A stretch of DNA of 47,756 bases, taken from Erysipelotrichaceae bacterium (GTDB lineage Bacteria; Bacteroidota; Bacteroidia; Bacteroidales; Paludibacteraceae). The notes beneath the pieces were generated by a model. It saw nothing but the letters and a program-made list of their open reading frames with translations, was not told where the DNA came from and made no database searches. Made by a program: the position numbers and the translations under genes. Shown piece after piece: positions 1-47,756 of the stretch. Within the stretch, counting starts at the first letter, position 1. Every line of letters starts with the position of its first letter. Where the stretch lies: assembly GCA_963633255.1 (NCBI GenBank), contig CAVGYO010000001.1, positions 1-47,756 of the forward strand, in the 5' to 3' direction.

Positions 1-118
1 ATTGTCTGCGGCTTCGCCGCATCACTCCTCACTCCTAATTCCTAACTCCTCACTCAAGAACACTCCTCACTTCTCACTGCTCACTTGTCTTGCTACTTGC
101 TACTCATATCTTGCGACT
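1..118 (-). repeat. Dispersed intergenic repeat element, copy A (inverted orientation, touches window start)
   Basis: The reverse complement of 1-118 aligns with 43830-43918 and 47663-47756. The 36-nt core ggaattaggagtgaggagtgatgcggcgaagccgca is identical in all three copies (here it is the rc of 6-41). Hairpin TGCGGC-ttc-GCCGCA lies at 6-20. GTAGCAA and GTGAGGA-type heptads are present. Confidence 0.85.
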
Positions 119-20139: not shown

Positions 20140-20227
20140 GTTTATTTTAGTGCGAAAGTTTGTAAAGTTTATAAAGTTGAAAGTCCGAACGCTTCAACAA
20201 ATCAACAAATCTTCAAATAATTGTCAA

Positions 20228-21763: not shown

Positions 21764-24700
21764 TCAATAGGCGAATTTGCCCTGCGAAACACGCTTTTCG
21801 TCGTTGTAGTAGAATACATAGATCAGCGTTTTGCCCGTGCGTTGTATGCGAATGATAGTGCCAGCCGCGCCTGCATCGCAAATATCGTCGTTCGGGTCGA
21901 TGAGCGGCACATCGTGCTTGGTAATCAGTCGGCCAGCGGTGTCGTATATGGCCACCGACACATTGTTGCGCCGTGTGCTGGCTTTGAACAGGTCGCCGCC
22001 GAGCATTGTCCAGCAAACATCGTCGGCTGTTGGTGCGTCGCCCGGGTTGATGTCCGACTCGATGAACTTGATGGTGTAGGTTTGTGTGGTGCCATCTTCG
22101 GCGGTGCAATAGATGTACTGCGTGAAGCGGTCGGTGCGGTCTTCGCCATATTCTACCGTCTGCAGCAGCGAGTCGCTCGCTATGCCCTCGATGGTCGGAA
22201 TAGTGGTGGCACCTTTGGCAATGGTGTAAGTGTATTCAAACACATTCGGGTCGAAATCTTTCAGCGATTTGTGGTCGATGATGATGTCTTTCAGCAGAGC
22301 ATTGTCCGATTTTTCGATGGCAAACATCAGCACATAGACATTTGTTGCGCCGTTTTGTGCCGTTACCGAAACGAGAATGACAGCGTTGTTATCGACAATA
22401 GTCGTGAGCGTATCGCCCGCAGCAACGGTTACCGTTTGTCCCGCAGCGATGGTATTGACGGTATTTTCGTGCGACAAATAGCCTTCGTTGGTGAGTGTCA
22501 GCGTGGTGTCGGTCAGTTGCAGCGTTTGTGTGGCATAGGCCAAGGTTACCGTTTGGTCTTTGTCGCCTTTGGTATAGCGCACATTGGCCAGTTTCGGGAA
22601 ATCGTTTTCGGTTGTGCCAAGGTCGAACAACAGGTCGTAACTCGTCGAATCGGGGTGGAATAGCGGCTCGAAATTCGGGTAGATAACATCGACGAAATAG
22701 AGGTCTTTCAGTTTGTTGTTGTTCGACAGTGCCACGGTGAAGTTCAGTATGTACTCGTTGGTCTGCATTTCGTCTTGCGAAACAACGCTGATGCTTGCGC
22801 TGCCGTGTGTGCCGAGGCTGTCGGTAGTGAGTTCGTGTGTGTCGAGCGTTACCGATTTGTAGGCCGTTTCGGGCAGTTGCGTTTTCCAAGTGATGCTGGG
22901 CAGTTGTTCGGTGCCGTAGGGCAGTGTGATGTAGTATTCGTAGTCGTCGCTCGCAAAGTTTTCTTCTACTACGAAGTTGGCTGCCTGCGTACTGAGCGAA
23001 TCGCCATTGAGGAAAATCATTTGCAGGAAAGCGTTGTCCGACAATTTTGTGGTGAATGTGATGTGGTAAACGGTCGTGGTGCTGCCGTCGGCGGCGGTTA
23101 CGGTGATGGTGGCCGTGTTTTCGCCACGCACAACCTCAACGATTTGTTCTGCATCGCCCTTTTCGTAGGTGATTTCGAGATTGCTAACGGTTGTTCCGTA
23201 GGGCAGCGTAACATTGTATTCGGTTGTTTCTTTGTCGAAATTATCGATGGCAGTGCCGTTTAGCACGATGTTGTTCAGTGTGGCGATGTTCGATTTTGCA
23301 ACGCTGAAACTGAATGTGTAGGTGCGGCTGTTGCCGTTTTCGGCGGTTACGGTCAGTGTGTAGTGGCCGTTCAGTCCGTCGAAAATCGAATCTTTCGTTA
23401 CGGTTTGGAACGCATCGCCCGCTTCCCAAGTGATTTGCGGAATGGTGGTTGTGCCGTAGGGCATCACGCTGTCGTACTGCGTGGTGTTCGGGTCGAATCT
23501 GTCGTAAGGCAAATTGTCGAAGAAGATGTTGCGCAGCGTATCGGTGGGCGAGAGCAGCAGCGTGTTGTGCACGGTGTAGGTGCGTGTTGTGCCGTTTTCG
23601 GCGGTTACACGAATGACTGCGTTGTCGTTCAGTGTCGTCATCTGGTGCAGAATTTCGACGGTTTGATAAGCGTCGCTCCGCTCAAAATCGATGGTAACTT
23701 CGTCGCGTGTGCCGATGTCCCATGTTACATGGTAGTCGTTGGTGCGACCCGCAAAGGCGTGGTCGGCCGTGTAGTGTGTTCCCGACAGTGCCAAAGGTTC
23801 TTCTATGCCGTTGATATTCAGCACGATTGCCGCCAGCGTGTCGTTGGCCGATTTTTCGACGATGAAATGCAGCGTGTAGGTACGGCTGTTGCCCTTTTCG
23901 GCGGTTACGGTCAATGTCGATGTGGCGTTGTAGTCGTCGCTCACTTGCGTGTCGATGGTTACAGTTTGCCACTTATCGCCTTTGCCGCGGCTATCGTTGT
24001 CCGATGGCGCAATGGCTGGCCACTGGCGCGTGCCTATGGGCAGTGTGATGGTGTATTCGTACACATCGGCGGCAAAATTCTTGTCGGCGGCGAAGTTGGT
24101 TTGCCCCATCAGCAGCGAATCGCCATCGAGGTAAATCATTTTCAGTGTGTCGCTTTCCGACAGTTCCACATCGAAGAAGATGTTGTATGTTTTGGTCGTT
24201 TCGCCGTCGGGTGCGGTAACGGTGATGAGCGTTGTTTCGCGCACGCCGTTGTTGCTGATGGCGACGCTTTGTCCATCTTCGTCAAGCACAGCCACAATGT
24301 CGGGACGAATTTCGGTGCCAGCGGGCAGTGTGATGGTGTAGTCCGTTTTGTCGCTGTCGAAATCGGAAAGTGGCTCGCCGTCCACTTCGATTTGCGCCAA
24401 ATTGGTATTGCTAGAGCCTGCGGGTTTCGTGAAGGTAACGGTGTAGGTCTTCGTGTTGCCGTTTTCGGCCGTAACTGTGATAGTTGCCGCTTTCAGATTG
24501 ACGGTCAAATCGATTTTCTGTTGGAAGCGATCTTCGCTCGTGTAGTCGATGACTGGGATTTCGTTTTTCGACAGCAAAATGCTGTAATCCAGCGTGTTAG
24601 CATCAAACTCGGCGATGGCGATATAATCCACAGCAATGCTCGTCAGGTCGGCGTTGGCCGATTTTTCGGCAACGAAATTGAGCGTATAGACCTTTTCGGT

Positions 24701-27700
24701 GCCATCTTCGGCGGAAACCGTTATGGTCGTCGCTTCGTTCAGACCGTTCTGCTCCATGGCGATGGTTTGGTTGGCATCGTTGGCGCGGAAGGTGATGTTC
24801 GGCATTGTAGGTTCGTCTATCTTCGGATTGGCGCACCGCAGCGTGATGTTGTAGTCGGTAATATCGGCCGCAAACGCATGGTCTGCCGTGTATTCGGCGG
24901 CATCGGTGTTGAGCAGGCTGCCGTTGAGCATGATGGCCGCCAAAGTAGCGTCGCTCGAGGGCAGGTGGCGCAGACGAACGACCGTGGTTTTGGTGGTTAC
25001 ATTGTCTTCGGCGGTAACTTCGAATGTTGCTTCGGCAAAATAGTTGTCGCTTGCGCTACTTGCACTGCGTTGTGCTGCATTGTTGGTCGCTTGTCCGTTG
25101 AGCGTGAATTGCGCCTTTATCTGTTGACCAGCGTCGCCGTGAATGGCCTCGATAACCACAGGTTCGGTGCGGTCGATGGCGTATTCGTAAACGCTGCTGT
25201 TGAAGTTTTGCAGTGCTTGGCCGTTTATCAGAATGTTGGCCAAATCGGCATTATCCGACGGTGTGCGGTCGAACTGCAGCGTGTAGCGGTTGGTGTTTGT
25301 GCCGCGCACTTGCCAAACAACGCTGCCTTTTGTGATGGTTTGCGCCACAGTGTCGGTTGCGTCGATGCGCTCGAAAGTGGTGGCTGGTTGCGTGTTGGCG
25401 GTGTGGTGATAGTCGAATTGGTCTTGGTCGAAACTGTCGAAAGGCGTGTCGCTCAAAATGCTGATATTCGCCAATTTACCCGAAGTAACGGGTGCTTCCC
25501 AACCGAACACAATTTGGTAAGTCTTGGCGTCGGTGCCGTTTTCGGCCAGCACATCTAAACGCGTGGTATCGGCAGCGAACAGAGTTACCTGCTGTCCGTC
25601 GGACTGCTTGGTGAACGACACATTTGGCAACTGTTCGTTGGCGGTCAAGGTAACGCTGTAGTTCTCTGTGGCGCTGTCGAACGCTATGTCGTGTCCATCG
25701 ATGGTGATATTGGCCAAAGTGGCATCGTCCGATTTTTTCTCGACACGGTGGAGCAGATATTTTTGCGTATCTTTTCCGTTTTCGGCCACCACGATGATGG
25801 TATCGGTCTCGCCGTTTGTGCCGAAGCGCAGCGTTTGGTACATATTGCCACGAATCGCCACAATGTCGGGTGCGAAACGACTGCCGTTGGGCACTTGCAC
25901 GGTGTACTCAAGAGTTTTGGCGGCAAAATCGACCAGCGTGTCGCCATCGACGATGATGCCCGCCAGCGCAGCGTTGCTCGACAGCGGTCGGTTCAGATTG
26001 ACGATGTATTGGCTCGTGTTGCCGTCTTCGGCTTTCGATGTGATGGTTACAACGCGCGTTTTGTACTGTCCGCTGCAGTTGTCGGTCTCTTCGCTGTAAC
26101 TGTAGGTGTACTCTTGGTCGCTCACCTCGCCTTCGAAGGTCAGCACAGGGTCGCCTTGTAGTTCGGCATCGACTTTTACCGCCTGAATCCAGTTGCCGTC
26201 GTATTTGCCTTTGAAGCCTTTGGCCTCTTGCCCATTGACAAAAATTTTGGCGATTTTGCTGTTGTAGGCAAATTTCACCCAATCGACCAACAGCGTCGAA
26301 GCGGCCTTGCTTTTCAGCGCGCTGGCGTTGTCGCTTTCGCAACTGTTGATGGTGATGTTCATCATCGCTGGATTCTCTATCGTATTGTCGATGAGCGACA
26401 GTTCCATTGTTTTCCAACTGTTGTTGAAGTTGCGGTCGGTGAACTCTTTGGCGTATTTGCCGTTGTCGAGTGTGTAGGCAAAACTCATGTTGCCAACATT
26501 CGATTGCGACACAGGATTGTACGACATCGATACATGGTCGGGTGTGTTGCGGAACGGAATGCCGCCAAAAATCGATGTTGCGGACGAACCGTCGTTGAGG
26601 GTGGCGGTCATGTCGCCGAGCGTCATTGCACCGGGCATTGAGCCGTCTATCACTTTGCTGTAGGCGGTGGTGAGTTTGGCGTTGCTGCCGTCTTGCGTTA
26701 CCTCGCTGCCCGGCGTGAAAGTGCCTTTCGAGAAGAGGCTACCGATGGGCAGTCCAGCGATTGTTGCGCTACTTTTGATTTCGGTGGCGGTGGCAACATC
26801 GGCCAAAACCGTCCAGCCAGTGGGCTTCTGCGCCGATGTGGTGGCTTGTGCCGCTTCCCATTGGGCAAAATCGGCGTTTGGAATCACATCGTTGGTGTAG
26901 AAATAGTAGATGGTGTAGGTGGCGCTGCTGTCGTCGTCTTTGCCGAGAACGGTTATTTTGGTGCGTTTGGTGTTGCTCTCCTCTTCGTCGATGGTGGCGG
27001 TGGTGTTGTCGTAGGTGTAGGCAATCTCGGCGTTCGAGGTGTTGTCGTTGTCCACGCTCACCACATATTGGTATTTGTACGGGTCGAAATCGGCAATGGG
27101 CGTGCCATTCACCGAAATGCCAGTCAGTGTGGCTTGCGGTTTGGCCAGTTGCGGCGTGAGCGTATAAACCACATCGGCCACGCCTTCGCGGTTGGCTTTG
27201 ACGGTGATGGTGGTTGTGCCGTAGATGCCGCCGTTGTCGATGAGTACGGTTTGCTCGTCGTACTTTTTGAGACAGGTGATTTTGGGCAATACGGTCGTGC
27301 CGTAGGGCAGCGTGATGGTGTCGTTCAAAGCCGAAATCATGCCAACGCCATCGACAATGTAGTACTGCAAACCGTTGTCTTCGTCGCTTTCAGCCACTTC
27401 GAAGGCGATGTTGTAGGTGCGTTCGTCGCCATTTTCGGCTATCACGGTGAGGTGTGCGGTGTTGCGCAAACCAGCGTCGTGCAGTTTGATGCGCTGCCCG
27501 AGTGTTTGCCCATCTTTTTTGCCCAGTTCCCAATGAATGGCGGGCGCAACTGTGGTGCCGTAGGGCAGTTTTGCTACATAGTCCAGCACTTCGGCATCGA
27601 AGTCGGGCAGTAGTTCGTTGGCGTTGTCCACCGTCAGATTTTCGAGCGCGGTGATGTCCGATTTTTCTACATCGAAATAGATGCGATAGTCGGTCGAATT

Positions 27701-30700
27701 TTCGCCGTTTTCGGCCACTACACGCACGATGGTGGTGTCGTTCACGCTGTTGTAGTAGATGGTGATGGTCTGTCCGTCGTTGGCTGCCACGGGATTTATC
27801 GGTCGAACGGCAGTCTCGCCCCAAGCGAGCAGGTGCGTGTATTCGAGCGTTTCGGGCGTGAACCCATCGATGGATTTGTACTCGTTGCCGTCGTAAATTT
27901 GCAGGTCTTGCAGTTGGGCGTTGTCGCTTTTTTCAGCATCGAAATTGATTTTATACTCTTTGTTGTCGCCGTTTTGGGCGGTTACAACTATCTGCGTGCC
28001 GTTCAGTCCAGCGTTTGCTATGGCAATGTATTGTGTCGAGTCGATGTCGAGTTGTATATCGGGCGTTGTGGTGCTGGTCGTGCTGGTGTATTCGCTCGTT
28101 TCTGGCTGAAAATCAGCAATTTCGTCGCCATCTACACGGATGCCGTTGATGGTCGCTGCGGTCATCGGTGCGGCTTGGTAGGCGATGGTGTAGGTGAGGC
28201 GCGTTGTTCTGTCGGGCGCGGTTACCGCTATTTGCGCCGTGCCTGTGAGTACAGGTTCGGTTACGGCGTAGGTTTGCCCATCTACATTGCCTTCGAAGGT
28301 CAGTTGCGGTGCTTTGGTTGCACCAGCGGTCAGCGTGTGCGTGTAGTCGAGGGTTGCGCTCTCGAATCCGTTCAGCGGCGTGCCGTCGAGGACGATGTTT
28401 TTCAGCGTGGCATCGCTCGATATGGCGCGTGTGAAGGCAATTTTGTAGGTGGTTACGGTTTCGTCTTCGGCTTTCACAGCGATGGTTGTGCCGCCCCAGC
28501 CGTTGTTCGACACGAGTACGGTTTGCGTTTCGTTGCCTTTTTCGTAGCCAATGGTCGGCAGCGTGGCAGCGTAGGGCAGTTCTACGCTATATTCGAGCGT
28601 CTCGGGCGCAAAATCCGCTATGGTTGCACCATTAATCAGAATGTTGCTGAGCAGACTATTGCCGTTCAGCAGGCGGTCGGTAAAGAGAATTGTGTAGATG
28701 TTCGGGTCGCCAATTTCGGGCGTTACGGTGATTTTGGCTGTGCCGAGCAGCGCAGGTTTCACAATGCTCACACTCTGCCCCTCGTTTTTCTCTACACTGA
28801 TGCTGGGACAGGCTTTTACAACTGTAGTGTCGAGCAGATAGGCGTATTTGTTGGTTTTGGGGTCGAAATTCGGCAGTGCCACACCGTCGATGTAAATCTG
28901 GTTCAGCAGACGGTTCGACGATTTTTTTACCGAGAACAGGAGCGTGTAGTTGCGCACTGTGCCGTCTTCGGCGGTTACGGTGATGGTGGTTGTGCCGTTC
29001 ACATCGCCAGCAACAATCGTTACAGTCTGCGTGCTTTCGGCTTTGATTGGCGAAATTGCGGGCAGTTCGGTGGTGCTGCTGGGCAGTTCTATGGCGTATT
29101 CGAGCGTTTCGGGTGCAAAGTTGCTCAATGCTGTGCCGTCTATTTTTATGCCGCTCAAGGCTGCATTGCTCGATTTTTGTACCGAAAAGTGTATGATGTA
29201 AACCGCTGTGGCACCCGATTGCGCCCGCACGGTGATTTTTGTGTCGCCGTCCACGCCGTCTTTGCGCATGCTGATGGTTTGCCATGCGTCGCCAGCGGTG
29301 TAGGCGATGTTGGGCAGGGTGGTGGTGCCGCTACGGAGTGTTATGCTGTATTCCAGTTGCGCTGGGTTGAAGTCGAGCGTGTAGCCATCGATGGCGATGT
29401 TGCCGAGTTGCGTGTTGTCGGCCTGTTTCACCGAAAAGTTGATGGAGTAGGTGCTCGACGAGCCGTCTTGCGCTTTTGCAATGATGCGCGTTGTGCCGCT
29501 CACGCCGTTGGTGATGATGGTTGGCTCGCTTTGGTAACTGTCGCCTTTGGTGTAGGTGATGGCGGGCAGTGCCGTGGTGCCGATGGGCAGTTCGTATGTG
29601 TAATTGAGCGTGTATTCGTCGAAATTCGGCAGCAATACGCCGTCGAGATAGATGGCTTTCAGGGTCGAAACCGACGATTTGGCGGCGGTGAACACAATTT
29701 TGTAGGTGCATTTTGCGCCGCTTGCCGCTGTTACAACTATTTTGTATGTGCCTTCGATGCCGCTGATTCCGCTTGCATCGGTGGCGATGGTCTGGTATTC
29801 GTCGCCCTGTTCGTAGGTTATTTTGGGCAGACTGGTTGTGCCGAGTGGCAGATTTTGATAATAGGTCGTTTTTTCAGCGTCCCAACCCTCTATTGCTACG
29901 CCGTCGAGTTTCAAACTTTTCAGGTAGCAGTAGGTCGATGCGGTGATTTTGAACGACAGTTTGTAGGTGCGTGTGGTGGTGTTGCCAGGGGCTTTCACGG
30001 CAATGTTGTAGGTGCCAGTGCAACTGCCGTCGGCAATTTTCACGCCATTGCTCACGGTGATGGTTTGCGCACCCGCTGCGTATGCCGATGTGTAGGTGAT
30101 GGTGGGCAAAGTTGTTGTGCCGAGCGGCAACTCTACGGTGTAGTTGTTTTTGGTTGGGCTGAAACCAGCGATGGATTTACCGCCAACTTGTATGTCTTGC
30201 AGCGTGTTGTCGGTCAGTTTGCCTATCGAAAACGCAATGCGATAGGTGTTTGTTGCACCGTTGGCGGCTTTCACGCTGATGGTGGCTGTGCCTGTCGGTG
30301 TGGTGGCTTGCGTAATGCTGATGGTCTGCCCGTCGTCGCCTTTGGTTACGCTCACAACTGGGGCTTCGGTGGTGCCGTAGGGCAGTTCTACGCTATATTC
30401 GGTGATGTAGCCGTTGTAGTTTGGCACCGAGGTGGTGATGTCGCCCACTGTGTACGAAATGCTTGCGGGGCGGTTGTTCGACGACTGCTCGGCCACAAAT
30501 TTGATTTTGTAGGTCGATGTGCGCTTGCCGTCTTCCGATTTCACGGTGATAACTACAGGTTCGCCGCCTACCGTTGCTTTCGAACGGTCGATGCTGATTT
30601 CGCTGCCCGACAGTACGCGCCCCGAGAAAGAAACGCTTGTGCCGCGGCAGTTGGTGAGTGTGCCCACACCACGCTTGGCAAACATATCGGGAATCTCCGT

Positions 30701-31585
30701 CGCACCAAGTCCAAGGGCGTAGGTCTGCTCTTCACCGTTGTTTTTCTTCGGGTCGAAGCCGCTCCAACGGCGGTTGTTCACATACAATTCGTCGATATTC
30801 GAACTGTAAATCAACTCTACATCGTCGATATAGAGGTCGTTGCCCGGATAGATGCCGCTGTTGGCACGGAAATTGGGATAGTTGCCCGCCGAAAAAATTA
30901 CATTACACTTTTCTGGCGTGTCTGCTTTGCCCGTGTAGTAAATCGGCACTTTTATCTGTGTCCATTCCGAGTAGGTTTTGTACTCTTTTACCCAACCTTC
31001 GGCCACTTGGTCGGCAAATTGGCTGGTGGAACATTTGTTGCCGTCGAGGGCTTGGCGTATATCCGACTCTTCGTCGGTGTGCGTGGTCGAGGTGCAACCA
31101 CCGCTCTTGCCTGTGTATGAGTTGCCTACCGATGTGCCTTTCCACGAGTAGAACATCAGGTGGAAATACTCTTTGTCGGTGTTGTTGCCAGTGCGCTTTA
31201 TCCAAACGCTCATGGTGTCGGGGTGGTATTTGAAACTGATGCCGCCGTCGCAACCTGCCGTGGCTTCGCTCACTTTGGTGATGCTTTCGAGATACGACCA
31301 CGGTTTTCCCAAGGCCATATAGCCAGGCGCAGGCTCGGTAATGCCAGCCGCACCAACCTCCTTGTCGGTTACGTATGCGCACGAACCGCCGTTGCGACCT
31401 TCGCGCTTGTACATGAATGTGAATTTGAAACCGACTTGCGTTACATTCGAGCCGTGCCAATTTTTCAATTGCGCATCGCCGTTGAACGAATCGCTCCAAT
31501 CTTCAAATCCCGAGTCGGGCAGTTGCTGCGCTATGGCTGCAAGAGCCAAGGTCAGCAAGTATATGGTAATTCTATATCGTCTCAT
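21764..31585 (-). CDS. Giant (3273 aa) T9SS-sorted surface protein: signal peptide, PCMD-like domain, ~15 cadherin-like beta-sandwich repeats, second PCMD-like domain, ~15 more repeats, Por-type C-terminal domain
   Basis: The start was moved to MRRYRITIYLLTLALAAIAQQ (cat at 31583-31585). The N-terminal region LPDSGFEDWSD...LYIDDVELIYSS (~30800-31525) resembles the PCMD family. There are about 30 repeats of ~85-95 aa with the pattern S-x-N-x-L-x-I-x-(V/I)-D-G...F-x-P-x-x-x-x-Y...LP-x-GTT...I-x-V-x-AE(D/N)G...TY-x-I-x-F. A second PCMD-like block, NDVIPNADFAQWEAAQ...LLVDWVKFAYNS, lies at ~26255-26895. The C-terminus ...VSVAIYDTAGRLITKH...TLIYVFYYNDEKRVSQGKFAY resembles TIGR04183. Confidence 0.9.
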   Translation of the reverse strand: MRRYRITIYLLTLALAAIAQQLPDSGFEDWSDSFNGDAQLKNWHGSNVTQVGFKFTFMYKREGRNGGSCAYVTDKEVGAAGITEPAPGYMALGKPWSYLESITKVSEATAGCDGGISFKYHPDTMSVWIKRTGNNTDKEYFHLMFYSWKGTSVGNSYTGKSGGCTSTTHTDEESDIRQALDGNKCSTSQFADQVAEGWVKEYKTYSEWTQIKVPIYYTGKADTPEKCNVIFSAGNYPNFRANSGIYPGNDLYIDDVELIYSSNIDELYVNNRRWSGFDPKKNNGEEQTYALGLGATEIPDMFAKRGVGTLTNCRGTSVSFSGRVLSGSEISIDRSKATVGGEPVVITVKSEDGKRTSTYKIKFVAEQSSNNRPASISYTVGDITTSVPNYNGYITEYSVELPYGTTEAPVVSVTKGDDGQTISITQATTPTGTATISVKAANGATNTYRIAFSIGKLTDNTLQDIQVGGKSIAGFSPTKNNYTVELPLGTTTLPTITYTSAYAAGAQTITVSNGVKIADGSCTGTYNIAVKAPGNTTTRTYKLSFKITASTYCYLKSLKLDGVAIEGWDAEKTTYYQNLPLGTTSLPKITYEQGDEYQTIATDASGISGIEGTYKIVVTAASGAKCTYKIVFTAAKSSVSTLKAIYLDGVLLPNFDEYTLNYTYELPIGTTALPAITYTKGDSYQSEPTIITNGVSGTTRIIAKAQDGSSSTYSINFSVKQADNTQLGNIAIDGYTLDFNPAQLEYSITLRSGTTTLPNIAYTAGDAWQTISMRKDGVDGDTKITVRAQSGATAVYIIHFSVQKSSNAALSGIKIDGTALSNFAPETLEYAIELPSSTTELPAISPIKAESTQTVTIVAGDVNGTTTITVTAEDGTVRNYTLLFSVKKSSNRLLNQIYIDGVALPNFDPKTNKYAYLLDTTVVKACPSISVEKNEGQSVSIVKPALLGTAKITVTPEIGDPNIYTILFTDRLLNGNSLLSNILINGATIADFAPETLEYSVELPYAATLPTIGYEKGNETQTVLVSNNGWGGTTIAVKAEDETVTTYKIAFTRAISSDATLKNIVLDGTPLNGFESATLDYTHTLTAGATKAPQLTFEGNVDGQTYAVTEPVLTGTAQIAVTAPDRTTRLTYTIAYQAAPMTAATINGIRVDGDEIADFQPETSEYTSTTSTTTPDIQLDIDSTQYIAIANAGLNGTQIVVTAQNGDNKEYKINFDAEKSDNAQLQDLQIYDGNEYKSIDGFTPETLEYTHLLAWGETAVRPINPVAANDGQTITIYYNSVNDTTIVRVVAENGENSTDYRIYFDVEKSDITALENLTVDNANELLPDFDAEVLDYVAKLPYGTTVAPAIHWELGKKDGQTLGQRIKLHDAGLRNTAHLTVIAENGDERTYNIAFEVAESDEDNGLQYYIVDGVGMISALNDTITLPYGTTVLPKITCLKKYDEQTVLIDNGGIYGTTTITVKANREGVADVVYTLTPQLAKPQATLTGISVNGTPIADFDPYKYQYVVSVDNDNTSNAEIAYTYDNTTATIDEEESNTKRTKITVLGKDDDSSATYTIYYFYTNDVIPNADFAQWEAAQATTSAQKPTGWTVLADVATATEIKSSATIAGLPIGSLFSKGTFTPGSEVTQDGSNAKLTTAYSKVIDGSMPGAMTLGDMTATLNDGSSATSIFGGIPFRNTPDHVSMSYNPVSQSNVGNMSFAYTLDNGKYAKEFTDRNFNNSWKTMELSLIDNTIENPAMMNITINSCESDNASALKSKAASTLLVDWVKFAYNSKIAKIFVNGQEAKGFKGKYDGNWIQAVKVDAELQGDPVLTFEGEVSDQEYTYSYSEETDNCSGQYKTRVVTITSKAEDGNTSQYIVNLNRPLSSNAALAGIIVDGDTLVDFAAKTLEYTVQVPNGSRFAPDIVAIRGNMYQTLRFGTNGETDTIIVVAENGKDTQKYLLHRVEKKSDDATLANITIDGHDIAFDSATENYSVTLTANEQLPNVSFTKQSDGQQVTLFAADTTRLDVLAENGTDAKTYQIVFGWEAPVTSGKLANISILSDTPFDSFDQDQFDYHHTANTQPATTFERIDATDTVAQTITKGSVVWQVRGTNTNRYTLQFDRTPSDNADLANILINGQALQNFNSSVYEYAIDRTEPVVIEAIHGDAGQQIKAQFTLNGQATNNAAQRSASSASDNYFAEATFEVTAEDNVTTKTTVVRLRHLPSSDATLAAIMLNGSLLNTDAAEYTADHAFAADITDYNITLRCANPKIDEPTMPNITFRANDANQTIAMEQNGLNEATTITVSAEDGTEKVYTLNFVAEKSANADLTSIAVDYIAIAEFDANTLDYSILLSKNEIPVIDYTSEDRFQQKIDLTVNLKAATITVTAENGNTKTYTVTFTKPAGSSNTNLAQIEVDGEPLSDFDSDKTDYTITLPAGTEIRPDIVAVLDEDGQSVAISNNGVRETTLITVTAPDGETTKTYNIFFDVELSESDTLKMIYLDGDSLLMGQTNFAADKNFAADVYEYTITLPIGTRQWPAIAPSDNDSRGKGDKWQTVTIDTQVSDDYNATSTLTVTAEKGNSRTYTLHFIVEKSANDTLAAIVLNINGIEEPLALSGTHYTADHAFAGRTNDYHVTWDIGTRDEVTIDFERSDAYQTVEILHQMTTLNDNAVIRVTAENGTTRTYTVHNTLLLSPTDTLRNIFFDNLPYDRFDPNTTQYDSVMPYGTTTIPQITWEAGDAFQTVTKDSIFDGLNGHYTLTVTAENGNSRTYTFSFSVAKSNIATLNNIVLNGTAIDNFDKETTEYNVTLPYGTTVSNLEITYEKGDAEQIVEVVRGENTATITVTAADGSTTTVYHITFTTKLSDNAFLQMIFLNGDSLSTQAANFVVEENFASDDYEYYITLPYGTEQLPSITWKTQLPETAYKSVTLDTHELTTDSLGTHGSASISVVSQDEMQTNEYILNFTVALSNNNKLKDLYFVDVIYPNFEPLFHPDSTSYDLLFDLGTTENDFPKLANVRYTKGDKDQTVTLAYATQTLQLTDTTLTLTNEGYLSHENTVNTIAAGQTVTVAAGDTLTTIVDNNAVILVSVTAQNGATNVYVLMFAIEKSDNALLKDIIIDHKSLKDFDPNVFEYTYTIAKGATTIPTIEGIASDSLLQTVEYGEDRTDRFTQYIYCTAEDGTTQTYTIKFIESDINPGDAPTADDVCWTMLGGDLFKASTRRNNVSVAIYDTAGRLITKHDVPLIDPNDDICDAGAAGTIIRIQRTGKTLIYVFYYNDEKRVSQGKFAY

Positions 31586-35071: not shown

Positions 35072-35257
35072 AATCGTTGCAAATACGGCGCGTAAAAAAC
35101 GCAAAAGCCTGATTTTTAGTAAGTTATAAAGTGTTAAAAATGTTAAAATGTGTTAATTTCGCAGAGATTTCTTGCTAATTTTATGCTGTCGCAACATCTG
35201 TTTTTGTCAATTTTTGTTCGTTTTTTGCCTTTTCTATATATAATATGGTGTAAAAAC

Positions 35258-41488: not shown

Positions 41489-41560
<72 letters not shown>

Positions 41561-43113: not shown

Positions 43114-43914
43114 GTGGAACTTTTCGAGAAAATAGCGCGCAAAGTCAATGCTGCACTCAAAAATTACGCCCTGATAGCCGACGGCGATAAAATTCTCATC
43201 GGACTTTCGGGCGGCAAGGACTCGCTGGCGTTGGTGGAGTTTTTGAGCGAGCGCGCCAAAATCTACAAGCCGCGTTTTTCGGTGGTGGCGGCACATATTT
43301 CGGTCGAAAATGTACCCTACCAGTCCGATTTGTCCTACCTCGACGACTTTTGTCGCCAGCACGGCGTGCCGTTTGTTCATCGCACCACCAAATTCGATGC
43401 CTCGACCGACCCACGCAAGTCGCACTGTTTTCTCTGTTCGTGGAATCGGCGAAAGGCGTTATTCGCTGTGGCAGAGGAACTTGGCTGCAACAAAATTGCT
43501 CTTGGCCACCACCGCGACGATATGCTCGAAACGCTGTTGATGAACCAGATTTTTCAGGGTGCGTTCGCTTCGATGCCGCCCAAACTGCGCATGGACAAGT
43601 TCGATATGACCATCATTCGTCCCTTGGCCGATGTGCGCGAAGCCGATTTGCAGGCGTTGGCGGTGCAGCGTGGCTATCGGAAGCAGATAAAAAACTGCCC
43701 CTACGAACGCGACTCGCACCGCAGCGATGTACGCCGCCTGCTCGAAGCCATGGAACGCCTCAACCCCAACGCCGCCTCGTCGCTCTGGAACAGCATGCAA
43801 CATGTGCAGCCGCAGTATTTGCCTCAAAAAGTCGCAAGATGTGAGTCGCAAGTAGCAAGAAAAGTGAGGAGTGAGGAATTAGGAGTGAGGAGTGATGCGG
43901 CGAAGCCGCAATGA
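43114..43914 (+). CDS. ttcA: PP-loop ATPase, TtcA-like tRNA 2-thiocytidine synthetase; C-terminal ~27 aa encoded by a repeat element
   Basis: GTG start. SGGKDS PP-loop and CFLCSWNRR (CxxC). The tail [27 protein letters not shown] and the TGA stop lie inside repeat copy B. Confidence 0.82.
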   Translation: MELFEKIARKVNAALKNYALIADGDKILIGLSGGKDSLALVEFLSERAKIYKPRFSVVAAHISVENVPYQSDLSYLDDFCRQHGVPFVHRTTKFDASTDPRKSHCFLCSWNRRKALFAVAEELGCNKIALGHHRDDMLETLLMNQIFQGAFASMPPKLRMDKFDMTIIRPLADVREADLQALAVQRGYRKQIKNCPYERDSHRSDVRRLLEAMERLNPNAASSLWNSMQHVQPQYLPQKVARCESQVARKVRSEELGVRSDAAKPQ

Positions 43915-43918: not shown

Positions 43919-43920
43919 TA

Positions 43921-43948
43921 GTAGCAAGTAGCAAGTAGCAAGTAGCAA
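43921..43948 (+). repeat. Tandem heptamer array (GTAGCAA)x4
   Basis: Four perfect units read directly. The same heptamer occurs in the 5' part of all three element copies, and the array continues ...gtagcaagaca as in copies A and C, so this may be the 5' stub of a second, tandem element. Confidence 0.9.
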
Positions 43949-43961
43949 GACATTGATAATT

Positions 43962-43988
43962 ATTTGAAAATTTGAAGATTTGAAGATT
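43962..43988 (+). repeat. Tandem octamer array (ATTTGAAG)x3 plus partial
   Basis: Reads atttgaaa atttgaag atttgaag att. Confidence 0.85.
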
Positions 43989-44014
43989 ATTGCGACATTG
44001 TTGATACCGACAAC

Positions 44015-44050
44015 TAGAAATTAGAAATCTAGAAATTAGAAATTAGAAAT
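44015..44050 (+). repeat. Tandem heptamer array (TAGAAAT)x5
   Basis: Reads tagaaat tagaaat c tagaaat tagaaat tagaaat. Confidence 0.9.
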
Positions 44051-44072
44051 TAACGCCAATGCGTTAAACCGA

Positions 44073-44103
44073 TCAACCAATCAACCAATCAACCAATCAA
44101 CCA
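44073..44103 (+). repeat. Tandem octamer array (TCAACCAA)x4
   Basis: Three perfect units plus tcaacca. Confidence 0.9.
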
Positions 44104-44109
44104 GAAATC

Positions 44110-44141
44110 GCTTCAACGCTTCAACAGTTCAACGCTTCAAC
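44110..44141 (+). repeat. Tandem octamer array (GCTTCAAC)x4
   Basis: Reads gcttcaac gcttcaac agttcaac gcttcaac. Confidence 0.9.
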
Positions 44142-44142
44142 G

Positions 44143-44166
44143 ATTAAACAATTAAACAATTAAACA
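44143..44166 (+). repeat. Tandem octamer array (ATTAAACA)x3
   Basis: Three perfect units. Confidence 0.9.
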
Positions 44167-44170
44167 GAAC

Positions 44171-44203
44171 TTTGCACACTTTCAAACTTTTTTCGTATCT
44201 TTG
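44171..44203 (+). promoter_or_regulatory. Bacteroidetes-type promoter for serS
   Basis: TTTG at 44171-44174, a 21-nt spacer, then TATCTTTG at 44196-44203. The ATG is at 44243. Confidence 0.6.
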
Positions 44204-44242: not shown

Positions 44243-45520
44243 ATGCTTACACTCAAACAAATTATCGGAAACCGCGACGAGGTGGTTCGTCGTCTGGGGA
44301 AAAAACATTTTGCGCCAGCGGCCGAAATGATTGACCAAGTGATAGCCGACGATGCCGACCGCCGCGCCGCCCAAAAAGAGTTAGACGCCAAACTGGCACA
44401 AATCAACCAACTGTCGAAATCGATAGGCGGACTGATGCAACAAGGCAAAAAAGCCGAAGCCGAACAAGCCAAAGCCGAAGTGGCAGCACTGAAAGATGCC
44501 ACAAAACAACTGTCGGCACAGATGGAAGAGAAAGAGAACGCCATGCGCGACCTGCTGCTGCAAATTCCTAATCTGCCCAAAGAGAGCGTGCCAGAAGGCA
44601 CTTGCGCCGACGACAATGTGGTAGAAAAAATGGGCGGCGAAATGCCCAAATTCGACGGATTCGAACCGCTGCCACACTGGGAGTTGGCAAAAAAATACGA
44701 CCTTATCGATTTTGAACTTGGCGTGAAAATTTCGGGCGCAGGATTCCCCGTGTACAAAGGACTTGGCGCACGCTTGCAACGCGCACTCATCAACTTTTTC
44801 CTCGACGAGGCGCGCGCCGCTGGCTATCTCGAAATTATGCCGCCAACGGTGGTGAATGCGGCTTCGGGGTACGGCACTGGTCAACTGCCCGACAAAGAGG
44901 GGCAGATGTATCACGCCGAGGTGGACGATCTCTACCTGATTCCTACCGCCGAAGTGCCTGTAACGAACATCTACCGCAATGTGATTCTGAACGAAAAAGA
45001 CCTGCCGATAAAAAATTGCGCCTACACGCAGTGCTTCCGCCGCGAGGCTGGCTCGTATGGCAAAGATGTGCGCGGGCTGAACCGTCTGCACGAGTTCTCG
45101 AAAATCGAAATTGTGCGCATCGATACGCCCGAACACAGCGAAGAGTCGCACCGCGAAATGCTGGCGCATGTCGAAGGACTGCTCAAAAAACTGGAACTGC
45201 CCTACCGCATTTTGCGCCTCTGTGGCGGCGATATGAGTTTCACCGCTGCACTCTGCTTCGATTTCGAAACATTCTCGGCAGCACAAAAACGCTGGCTCGA
45301 AGTCAGTTCCGTGTCGAATTTCGAGGCATATCAGGCCAACCGCTTGAAGTGCCGCTACAAAACCGCCGACGGCAAAACCGAACTTTGCCACACGCTCAAC
45401 GGATCGGCATTGGCACTGCCGCGCATCGTGGCTACCATACTCGAAAACAACCAAACGCCCGACGGCATTCGTGTGCCGAAAGTGCTGGTGCCTTACATGG
45501 GCTGCGAAATCATCAAGTGA
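44243..45520 (+). CDS. serS: Seryl-tRNA synthetase
   Basis: Translation MLTLKQIIGNRDEVVRRL... with an N-terminal coiled coil; class II motifs ...FRREAGSYGKDVRGLNRLHEF...GSALALPR. The ATG at 44243 is preferred to the TTG at 44231. Confidence 0.96.
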   Translation: MLTLKQIIGNRDEVVRRLGKKHFAPAAEMIDQVIADDADRRAAQKELDAKLAQINQLSKSIGGLMQQGKKAEAEQAKAEVAALKDATKQLSAQMEEKENAMRDLLLQIPNLPKESVPEGTCADDNVVEKMGGEMPKFDGFEPLPHWELAKKYDLIDFELGVKISGAGFPVYKGLGARLQRALINFFLDEARAAGYLEIMPPTVVNAASGYGTGQLPDKEGQMYHAEVDDLYLIPTAEVPVTNIYRNVILNEKDLPIKNCAYTQCFRREAGSYGKDVRGLNRLHEFSKIEIVRIDTPEHSEESHREMLAHVEGLLKKLELPYRILRLCGGDMSFTAALCFDFETFSAAQKRWLEVSSVSNFEAYQANRLKCRYKTADGKTELCHTLNGSALALPRIVATILENNQTPDGIRVPKVLVPYMGCEIIK

Positions 45521-46858: not shown

Positions 46859-47689
46859 ATGTCGACCTTGTTGCGTTTTCTGCTTAAATTTGCCAACTTC
46901 TTTGAATTTCTATTCTTGGAAGTGGTTGCGTTTTTGTTCATTGTGAACTTCAACGCCTTTCAGCAGAGCGCATTCTACCGATTCAACGCCTCGATGGTGG
47001 CATCGCTCTATTCGGCAACGAACGCTTGTGCCGACTACTTCCATCTGACAGCAGAAAATGCGCAGTTGATGGACGAAAACAATCGGTTGCTCAATCGGAT
47101 AGCGGCTTTGGAGGCGCAACTGCCCGACACGATGGCGGTTACGGCGGTCGAATTGCCCTACCATGCTCGCACGGCCAAAGTGGTTTATGCGTCGGTCAAT
47201 CGGTTGCAAAATGTGCTGATTATCAATCGTGGAACAGCCGACAGCATTGCCACCGACATGGGCGTGGTGAATGCCGACGGCGTGGTGGGCATAGTCGATG
47301 CGGTGTCGAAACATTTTGCGGTGGTGTTGCCCGTGATTAGCACCAAATCGATGGTGAGCGGCAAAATCGCCAAAAACGGCACTATCGGTTCGGTGGTGTG
47401 GGACGGTCTTTCGCCCGAATATGCCGAACTGACCGACATTCCGTATCATGTCGATGTGGCGGTGGGCGACACGGTGGTTACCAGCGGCTATTCCGCCATT
47501 TTTGCCAGCGGCGTGCCTATCGGCGTGGTCGACGAGGTGGAGGTGAACAACAGCCGCGTATTTTGCAAAATCAGACTGCGACTGCTCGTCAATTACCGCA
47601 CCGTCGATGCTGTGCATGTAATCGATTGCGCGCACCGCGACGAATTGAAACAAGTAATCTCCGATAATGTTAGTAGCAAGACAAGTTAG
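46859..47689 (+). CDS. mreC: Rod shape-determining protein MreC
   Basis: N-terminal TM segment, coiled coil (AENAQLMDENNRLLNRIAALEAQL), then a beta-rich domain. It follows mreB. The last codons and the TAG stop (47687-47689) lie in repeat copy C. Confidence 0.9.
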   Translation: MSTLLRFLLKFANFFEFLFLEVVAFLFIVNFNAFQQSAFYRFNASMVASLYSATNACADYFHLTAENAQLMDENNRLLNRIAALEAQLPDTMAVTAVELPYHARTAKVVYASVNRLQNVLIINRGTADSIATDMGVVNADGVVGIVDAVSKHFAVVLPVISTKSMVSGKIAKNGTIGSVVWDGLSPEYAELTDIPYHVDVAVGDTVVTSGYSAIFASGVPIGVVDEVEVNNSRVFCKIRLRLLVNYRTVDAVHVIDCAHRDELKQVISDNVSSKTS

Positions 47690-47756
47690 GAGTGAGAAGT
47701 GGTTTTTGAGTTAGGAGTTAGGAATTAGGAGTGAGGAGTGATGCGGCGAAGCCGCA
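47663..47756 (+). repeat. Dispersed intergenic repeat element, copy C (cut by window end immediately after the hairpin)
   Basis: The sequence gataatgttagtagcaagacaagttaggagtgagaagtgg...ggaattaggagtgaggagtgatgcggcgaagccgca aligns with rc(1-118) and with copy B. The 36-nt core at 47721-47756 is identical. Confidence 0.85.

Follow-up and report, generated by a model that had tools for sequence, protein, structure and literature searches.

Tandem heptamer-type repeats in bacterial intergenic DNA have long been known from early work on short tandemly repeated repetitive (STRR) sequences, and among modular intergenic elements the pneumococcal BOX elements are comparable to BrickBuilt of Porphyromonas gingivalis. 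Prokaryotic long simple sequence repeats (long SSRs) have units of 5-11 nt and include TAACTGA heptamers as well as 'assemblages of heptamer repeats' in Bacteroidetes (MacGregor 2015, PMC4679880, which cites the long SSRs of Mrazek 2007). Repetitive extragenic palindromes (REPs) are GC-rich, bear a one-sided GTAG tag, lie mostly downstream of genes and cluster in mosaics with other short motifs, as in bacterial interspersed mosaic elements (BIMEs); in REPtrons, palindromes flank the gene of a REP-associated tyrosine transposase (RAYT) (Di Nocera 2013, PMC3733652). BrickBuilt is a modular MITE (miniature inverted-repeat transposable element) known from a member of the Bacteroidales; it is always intergenic, lies near promoters and contains a variable-copy internal tandem repeat (PMC4596501). 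Here we describe a block of 7- and 8-nt tandem arrays upstream of serS in contig CAVGYO010000001.1 (47,756 nt; assembly GCA_963633255.1), which was analysed over its whole length and is called the window below. Sequence comparison places the block in a family of mosaic intergenic repeats that is spread genome-wide in, and specific to, a clade of gut Paludibacteraceae, and this mosaic combines the heptamer-array features of STRRs and long SSRs with features of REPs and BIMEs.

A first-pass annotation made from the sequence alone had reported six back-to-back arrays of 7-8-nt units at positions 43921-44166 (246 nt). Tandem Repeats Finder recovered them at 43920-44166 as AGTAGCA x4.3, ATTTGAAG x3.4, TAGAAAT x5.3, AACCAATC x4.6, CGCTTCAA x4.2 and AACAATTA x3.5. 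Arrays (period 6-9, at least 2.8 copies) covered 189 of the 246 nt, compared with a mean of 0.2 nt and a maximum of 27 nt in 500 dinucleotide-preserving shuffles, four of which contained any array at all; the arrays and their coordinates were thus confirmed. All lie on the forward strand. Array 1, (TAGCAAG)x4, occupies 43922-43949 and is followed by array 2, (ATTTGAAR)x3 (43962-43985), the non-repeated linker ATTATTGCGACATTGTTGATACCGACAA (43986-44013) and array 3, (C)TAGAAAT x5 (44014-44050). A second linker (44052-44069) holds the small palindrome AACGCCAATGCGTT, found as annotated at 44052-44065, and a dispersed module AATGCGTTAAAC (44058-44069). It leads into array 4, (NNATCAAC)x4 (44070-44101). 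The two remaining arrays, CGCTTCAA x4 and CRATTAAA x3, proved to be a single uninterrupted 8-nt array of seven units in register (44109-44164), with a drift from C to A at one position. The description of the units as unrelated had to be dropped, since arrays 4-6 have nnnTCAAC/nnTTMAAC in common and the heptamers share TAGnAAn.

The mosaic extends upstream of the annotated region. It contains, on the plus strand, a heptad-periodic module, AGTCGCAAGATGTGAGTCGCAAGTAGCAAGA (43830-43860), that is dispersed in this imperfect form (27-45-nt matches of 91-97% identity at about a dozen other loci), and a seventh array of A-R-T-K-A-G-N heptamers (AGTGAGG/AATTAGG; detected as AGTGAGG x4.7 at 43863-43895), which continues in register into hairpin 1 (TGCGGC-GAA-GCCGCA, 43896-43910). 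The latter has a 6-bp GC stem and a GAA triloop and contains GCGAAGC, an exceptionally stable DNA mini-hairpin (PMC13037366). Three copies of hairpin 1 were found in the window (7-21, 43896-43910 and 47742-47756), belonging to element copies A, B and C, respectively. Copy A (1-118, minus strand) comprises a TAGCAAG module, A-R-T-K-A-G-N arrays and hairpin 1 at the left contig end, as seen from the inverted-repeat pairs I1-I3, I5 and I7; copy C (47669-47756, plus strand) lies directly 3' of the mreC stop, with hairpin 1 cut by the right contig end. The segment TAGCAAGACA was located, as previously noticed, in the array 1 region (43943-43952), in copy C (47674-47683) and, on the reverse strand, in copy A. 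The proposal that the block is an extension of these element copies held up: both belong to the same dispersed repeat system, and their units and linkers recur in related genomes.

To trace this system, the hairpin 1 20-mer was scanned in one genome per species. It occurred in 41 copies in three related species known from metagenome-assembled genomes (MAGs), with two further matches in unrelated taxa, against about one match expected by chance in the scanned DNA by our own estimate; viral contigs contained 0 matches to this 20-mer and gave no sign of a phage or viral origin. A common flank layout was seen for all copies, namely a stop codon, (A-R-T-K-A-G-N)n, hairpin 1, (ATTTCAA/ATTTCAGA)n and then further hairpins, linkers and arrays. 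Altogether, 42 loci held 293 arrays, 175 of period 7, 103 of period 8 and 15 of other periods (7/8-nt units in 278 of 293), built from about 100 canonical, interrelated units in which TTTC/GAAA and TCAA/TTGA are the most over-represented tetranucleotides (z 15-21). Arrays account for 15-17% of intergenic bases in the hairpin 1 loci, 5% in the window and at most 1% in array-poor relatives, versus 0.1-0.3% of coding DNA. The search for the six units of the block at other element copies, which the first-pass annotation had proposed, retrieved all six in related genomes. Allowing one mismatch, the ATTTGAAR unit occurred in 17 arrays at 15 loci and the TAGAAAT unit in 64 arrays at 29 loci; the A-R-T-K-A-G-N family comprised 40 arrays at 28 loci. 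The composite order TAGAAAY - AATGCGTTAAAC - (NNATCAAC)n is likewise repeated elsewhere, and AATGCGTTAAAC followed by (NNATCAAC)n was found in contigs L011, L015, L016, L030, L043 and L047, where it is not palindromic. Linker ATTATTGCGACATTGTTGATACCGACAA resembles the linker after ATTTGAA-type arrays at other loci (ATTGCGGCGTTTCGGTTACCG-like, in both orientations, compared by eye and unscored), and the units of arrays 5 and 6 elsewhere come after the 3' foot of a second hairpin (GTGCGTCC-GAACG-CTTCAACG...). The original impression that such a concentration of arrays is very unusual is valid for bacteria generally and for related species, while within the gut Paludibacteraceae clade it is the norm.

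These properties are close to those of STRRs and long SSRs (PMC4679880). At least three head-to-tail units of 5-11 nt beyond chance, at many non-coding, lineage-restricted loci, were observed here as well; in both cases tandem heptamers occupy many intergenic loci per genome, close relatives have shorter repeat-free spacers, contigs end in the repeats, and slippage has been proposed as the cause. The units are not the named STRR sequences, and the host, judged from SerS homology, belongs to the Paludibacteraceae rather than the cyanobacteria, so that the block is not an STRR in the strict sense. In contrast to the described repeats, units of 7 nt and of 8 nt are each common here, the unit types number about 100, and GC triloop hairpins and REPs alternate with arrays that directly adjoin one another. 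The gut Bacteroidales host is a further difference, as are the polar distribution of G and C and the scarcity of ATG reported below.

Comparison of orthologous sites revealed compact and array-filled states. The block is flanked by an open reading frame (ORF) with a Pfam PP-loop match (TtcA-like, referred to as ttcA) and by serS, mreB and mreC. In relatives with 77-88% nucleotide identity, the ttcA-serS spacer measures 86 nt (L054-L059) or 70 nt (L066-L069) and is free of arrays, whereas sister species at 94% (L060-L065, L070-L077, L083) and at 87-90% identity (L078-L082) carry a mosaic of 330-640 nt at the same site. The unit types at this site differ between the array-rich sister species, none being conserved at the orthologous position. 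The spacer between mreC and mreD behaved in the same manner: 18 nt or 3 nt in array-poor relatives versus a mosaic of 100-350 nt, extending as far as the mreD ATG, in all array-rich lineages (window 47690-47756, L001:5844-6020, L002:3793-4067, L003:3770-3949, L079:6272-6624 and L060:13616-13719). Beyond the point where copy C is cut in the window, other strains of the same species continue with a mosaic of 100-280 nt up to the ATG of mreD, hence inside the mreBCD operon; hairpin 1 is present in this spacer in L001 and L003 and not in L002. The MAGs carrying these elements (L011-L052; contigs CAVBBP01, CAVKQB01 and CAVKTI01) are named Segatella copri, Leyella stercorea and Acutalibacteraceae at NCBI. 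These names are probably wrong, because the contigs show 87-98% SerS and nucleotide similarity to the window and the named SerS homologues are all from Paludibacteraceae.

Homology with the array-poor contig L054 stops at 43823 (CAGTATTTGCC), within the last ttcA codons, and homology with compact relatives restarts at the serS -7 box; with sister species, too, it sets in again at the end of the arrays. Given these boundaries, a mosaic of about 370 nt has replaced an ancestral spacer of about 51 nt between ttcA and serS, with the outcome that the ttcA frame now reads through 29 element-derived codons and that the -33 region consists of array units. The element-encoded tail (43824-43914, plus strand; 29 codons and the stop in translation) stands in place of the ancestral PQNEK* with which the L054 protein ends; in L078, the stop follows directly after QYLP. 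The repeat has thus rewritten the C-terminus of the TtcA-like protein. On the other side, the serS -7 box TATCTTTG (44196-44203, plus strand), which is of the Bacteroidota type, lies outside the mosaic, 5' of the serS ATG at 44243, and its core G-T-A-n-n-T-T-T-G-C-A was unchanged in all 7 aligned species or strains. The -33 TTTG was confirmed at 44171-44174, 4 nt past the last array. Species alignment placed it, together with the promoter spacer, in three degenerate ACTTTnnn units (44169-44195, plus strand), and ACTTTCAN units were aligned at the -33 to -12 part of the promoter in array-rich species and were missing from array-poor ones; the serS -33 region has evidently been built from array units. 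Classification as a MITE was rejected: comparison with the compact site in L054 revealed neither discrete ends nor a target-site duplication, and terminal inverted repeats were likewise lacking at this site. The mosaic shares with BrickBuilt the modular make-up, the intergenic position near promoters and the variable tandem repeats in a Bacteroidales host; BrickBuilt, however, consists of a single 23-nt unit between leader and tail ends bearing inverted repeats, and here we found many 7-8-nt arrays.

Differences were already apparent within the species. An exact-protein look-up with SerS, taken from its ATG onwards, gave no match, whereas ten contigs encode an identical MreB; these are 98-99.96% identical to the window. 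Nine alleles of the same species were compared. Their linkers are identical (ATTATTGCGACATTGTTGATACCGACAA in L001-L004 and L006), and the alleles differ by whole units: 4-5 units of TAGCAAG, 3-5 of TAGAAAT, 2-4 of NNATCAAC, 2-5 of CGCTTCAA (counted by eye) and 2-3 of RATTAAAC, with ATTTGAAR constant at 3 in the six alleles covering array 2. This bears out the predicted slippage-prone arrays with unit-number polymorphism among strains and MAGs. Two of the grounds on which the first-pass annotation would have regarded the arrays as neutral debris, namely invariant copy numbers and absence from all other sites, do not apply. Apart from unit numbers, whole modules were replaced in L005 and L073, between L070 and L071, and between L002 and L003, which suggests exchange between dispersed copies at shared modules. 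From these patterns we infer slippage and gene conversion as the underlying processes. Upstream of the shared arrays, three contigs have other sequences in place of ttcA, namely a Peptidase_M23 gene (L001:1986-2389), a REP-like hairpin (L004, 1-100) and other arrays (L005, 1-60); these may be either rearrangements at mosaics or chimeric contigs.

The hairpins connect the mosaics to REPs. Hairpin 1 lies just 3' of a same-strand gene end in 33 of 43 copies; in the window it is preceded by AGTGA and has no GTAG tag. Hairpin 2, found in related genomes, has the form GTAG-GGACGCAC-NNN-GTGCGTCC and a one-sided tag in 23 of 27 copies (13 with GTAG on the 5' side, 10 with CTAC on the 3' side), three copies having GTAA; by these features it qualifies as a GTAG-tagged REP. 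Sister genomes also encode a 176-aa ORF with HUH and Tyr motifs that matches the NCBIfam model NF047646, 'REP-associated tyrosine transposase', with E = 8e-15 (its 55 bits fall short of the equivalog cut-off, which is 80), and Pfam Y1_Tnp (E = 4e-4, below the gathering score). In the sister genomes this RAYT-like gene is flanked by GTAG-GGACG...CGTCC-CTAC palindromes (L060:4958-5488, L037:6951-7481 and L087). In addition, the RAYT-like genes L060:4958-5488, L037:6951-7481, L087:4001-4528 and L084:4001-4534 contain an in-frame REP palindrome of the GTAG...CTAC type; its position is conserved, and it encodes R-D-x-A-x-x-V-P-T between the HUH and Tyr motifs. All four genes also have such palindromes on their flanks. 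RAYT homologues are widespread in Bacteroidales, and one is present in an array-poor genome that also has a REP, so the REP/RAYT system predates the arrays. The parallels to REPs, BIMEs and REPtrons (PMC3733652) thus include extragenic GC-rich palindromes, the one-sided GTAG tag, a position mostly downstream of genes, clustering in mosaics with other short motifs, and a RAYT gene flanked by palindromes. On the other hand, BIME linkers are single fixed motifs where we observed tandem 7-8-nt arrays, and hairpin 1 as the sole hairpin class of the window lacks the GTAG tag. The 2013 survey (PMC3733652) lists no GTAG REPs for Bacteroidetes, whereas hairpin 2 occurs in Bacteroidales.

A second genome-wide property is polarity. 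In 106 of 139 intergenic regions, a G-rich, C-poor stretch gives way to a C-rich, G-poor one, whichever strand is read (p = 5e-14); equivalently, the sense strand has little C following stop codons and little G ahead of start codons. The trend persisted in regions without hairpin 1 (76 of 106; rho = -0.57 for the arrays alone) and was not seen in array-poor relatives (7 of 24 regions). A symmetric arrangement of G-rich and C-rich flanks around hairpin 1 was tested and discarded, as the flanks are not symmetric. The block itself follows the rule: base counts change from C-poor to G-poor at the linker 44052-44069, with 58 G and 24 C up to 44052 and 29 C and 7 G in 44067-44166, and the switch falls at the small palindrome. 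Within units, ATG is depleted 3-5-fold on both strands, TGA is enriched 2-fold, and stop codons are modestly enriched (94% vs 84%). The depletion of ATG fits the avoidance of AUG near start codons in Bacteroidetes, which have no Shine-Dalgarno sequences (PMC6847099). Polarity and ATG depletion together would then reflect a filter on what is tolerated beside genes.

On balance, the mosaics are probably mainly self-propagating or neutral sequence that is altered by slippage and inter-copy exchange and filtered for compatibility with the neighbouring genes; we infer both the neutrality and the selective filter. The building blocks are short GC-rich triloop hairpins, a few short unique linkers and back-to-back 7- or 8-nt arrays drawn from a limited, interrelated vocabulary. 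At the locus studied here, a mosaic of some 370 nt has overwritten the last ttcA codons, the stop and the serS -33 region and spared the -7 box. Afterwards, whole units have been gained and lost, probably by replication slippage or unequal exchange, and modules have been swapped with other copies, probably by recombination or gene conversion. Selection would act as a filter on the DNA next to genes, leaving it C-poor and TGA-rich after stops and G-poor before starts, with ATG rare and the core promoter untouched.

Several points weigh against this reading. Variation within units is confined to fixed positions: units of the NN-ATCAAC type vary at positions 1-2 only and keep the ATCAAC core (chi-square p = 1.6e-50), and position 4 of A-R-T-K-A-G-N is filled by G (140 units), T (111) or A (4) and never by C (0; p < 1e-50). 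Purely neutral slippage and mutation do not predict such a pattern, which points to a constraint, be it on function or on array propagation. The near-exclusive unit size of 7/8 nt also has no account in a self-propagating or neutral mosaic. Neither terminal inverted repeats nor target-site duplications were found at the boundaries 43823/44196 by comparison with the compact L054 site, and no multicopy transposase was found among 244 ORFs near elements (about 310 kb sampled). Neither hairpin 2 nor a RAYT gene occurs in the window, and since the array-poor genome has a RAYT homologue, RAYT alone is insufficient for arrays. Finally, array loci were sampled via hairpin 1 with crude gene models (ORFs of at least 100 aa), which biases the densities given above, and all data derive from metagenome assemblies.

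According to an alternative that we hold to be unlikely, the arrays have a function as generic cis-elements, forming polar platforms whose 7-8-nt sites would be bound by a factor specific for single-stranded RNA or DNA. Such a factor might be a cold-shock (Csp) or S1-type OB-fold protein, an RNA recognition motif (RRM) protein, or Rho on the C-rich, G-poor half; the platforms would insulate transcription units genome-wide, or tune mRNA 3' ends and translation initiation. Conserved core positions are compatible with iteron-like or other protein binding, and the promoter-proximal 100 nt, with their excess of C over G, resemble a Rho-binding site. A platform would also agree with the strong polarity relative to flanking genes and with the location of hairpin 1 and its array, which in 33 of 43 cases follow a stop codon immediately and in sense orientation. 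Heptamer repeats have moreover been proposed as Csp or S1 binding sites, and an effect on expression was reported in Nostoc (PMC4679880; bioRxiv 10.1101/2022.06.06.494920). However, the unit types turn over completely at the same site between species that are 87-94% identical, and relatives manage with spacers of 3-86 nt. Mosaics that reach the mreD ATG within the mreBCD operon are hard to square with efficient termination, and polarity is mathematically symmetric between the strands and therefore equally well explained as a tolerance filter.

A still more doubtful alternative, which competes with the slippage reading for the generation step only, holds that not ordinary slippage of the polymerase but the REP machinery, acting at the feet of hairpins, produced the arrays. 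The 7-8 nt beside the stem would be reiterated either when RAYT nicks and rejoins DNA at a GTAG-type head or when replication stalls at a GNA-triloop hairpin of very high stability. E. coli RAYT cuts single-stranded REP DNA at the GTAG motif (PMC3733652), and the stability of the GCGAAGC mini-hairpin (PMC13037366) is in line with stalling. Arrays lay within 2 nt of a GC hairpin in 23% of cases versus 7% under random placement (p = 8e-12), and in 9 of 27 hairpin 2 copies units run in register into the hairpin (GAAAGTGT GAAAGTGC GAAAGTAG|GGACG) with the GTAG head as the last unit; the A-R-T-K-A-G-N array likewise leads into hairpin 1 without a change of register. Yet about 70% of arrays touch no hairpin, four of the six arrays of the block have none beside them, and a RAYT and a REP also exist in the array-poor genome. 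The stronger version, in which every unit is a reiterated GTAG head, was rejected, as GTAG is not enriched in units overall (5.4% vs 6.2% expected; rank 57 of 136 tetranucleotides).

It is very improbable that the block is a classical contingency locus in which the number of units switches or tunes expression of serS or ttcA. Contingency loci of Haemophilus, Neisseria and Moraxella likewise change unit numbers by slippage from strain to strain, and here the variable block abuts a promoter. Their units are usually of 1-5 nt, though, and are so placed that a change affects the frame of surface, virulence or restriction-modification genes or the spacing of their promoters, whereas serS is an essential housekeeping gene and its core promoter geometry is unaltered: the variable arrays end at 44164, upstream of -33 (44171), all same-species alleles covering the -33/-7 spacer and the -7 box agree in both, and no species differs in the -7 core. 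The same arrays occur, besides, at well over a hundred intergenic regions beside unrelated genes, and the array types at the ttcA-serS site are not kept between sister species. The contingency role considered in the first-pass annotation is thus disfavoured, as is its suggestion of a DNA-structure element: folding of the whole block was not significant (z = -0.41 for RNA and -0.21 for DNA) and so gave no support to a structured DNA or RNA element. Other mosaics folded with a mean z of -1.9, which we attribute to local hairpins.

Further element classes were rejected on their defining features. CRISPR arrays have repeats of 23-50 nt and unique spacers of similar length, while the units here are 7-8 nt, contiguous and without spacers. 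Replicon iterons are direct repeats of about 17-22 bp that adjoin a rep gene or origin and are accompanied by an AT-rich unwinding region; units of 7-8 nt flanked by ttcA-like, serS and mreBC genes do not match them, and the occurrence of the same arrays at many chromosomal loci also disfavours them. Hairpin 1 does not qualify as an intrinsic terminator, since no direct T run follows the stem: copy B is followed by ATGACAATTAG and most other copies by ATTTCAAATTTC, an interrupted T run; hairpin 1 copies also lie inside the mreBCD operon. A consensus scan for sigma-70 promoters and terminators gave no more matches than chance and called no plus-strand terminator at copy B, the only terminator-like match being the small palindrome on the minus strand. 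Rfam at gathering thresholds had no match in the block; its sole match in the window was one tRNA gene (41489-41560; RF00005, 63.8 bits).

A short-read assembly or chimeric binning artefact, to which the habitual contig ends in mosaics and the possible chimeric joins of L001, L004 and L005 might point, has a practically negligible probability, as the same block was independently assembled in the same order from at least nine samples (NCBI MAGs, including SPAdes-derived ones, and Logan assemblies), each array is at most 40 nt and thus shorter than a sequencing read, and the sister-species mosaics were reproduced across many ENA, JGI and NCBI assemblies. The window is itself a whole contig with both ends inside hairpin 1 copies (1-21 and 47742-47756). 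Most contigs encoding the identical MreB start within the serS-upstream arrays, and L002-L008 of other same-species strains begin there as well. It seems that short-read assemblies of this organism are systematically interrupted at the mosaics. Elsewhere in the window, two other intergenic regions (20155-20211 and 35123-35225) contained weaker short arrays (AAAGTTTAT x2.7, TCAACAAA x2.2, GTTAAAAGT x3.6 and GTTTTTGTCA x2.6). On the minus strand of about 22000-31000 we noted many diverged DNA repeats at a spacing of about 250 nt (families D1-D14), which are presumably coding and resemble the tandemly repeated domains of a very large protein.

Heptamer-type repeats have no accepted origin or function. 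The clade described here offers a clean natural experiment, in that species 87-100% identical in the flanking genes are saturated with arrays, relatives at 77-88% are compact at the same sites, and whole units as well as swapped modules already distinguish strains within one species. The question is made testable now by the link to GTAG REPs and RAYT, by units that strictly measure 7/8 nt and by a composition that is polar and poor in ATG. In practical terms, the mosaics break short-read assemblies of these gut bacteria, extend annotated ORFs, as in the ttcA tail, and could serve as strain-typing markers. A bolder synthesis, to which we assign a low probability, views the mosaics as a clade-wide polar 'spacer code', whose arrays of 7-8-nt sites, each with a conserved core, would be nucleated at REP-type hairpins in a RAYT- or stalling-dependent manner and would then act as single-strand-binding platforms for Csp/S1/RRM-type proteins or Rho. 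If this were true, it would provide both an origin mechanism and a function for heptamer-type repeats, which have been lacking since STRRs were described; the mosaics would shield transcription units from one another and, in an organism that has no Shine-Dalgarno sequences, prevent structure and AUG codons in translation start regions.

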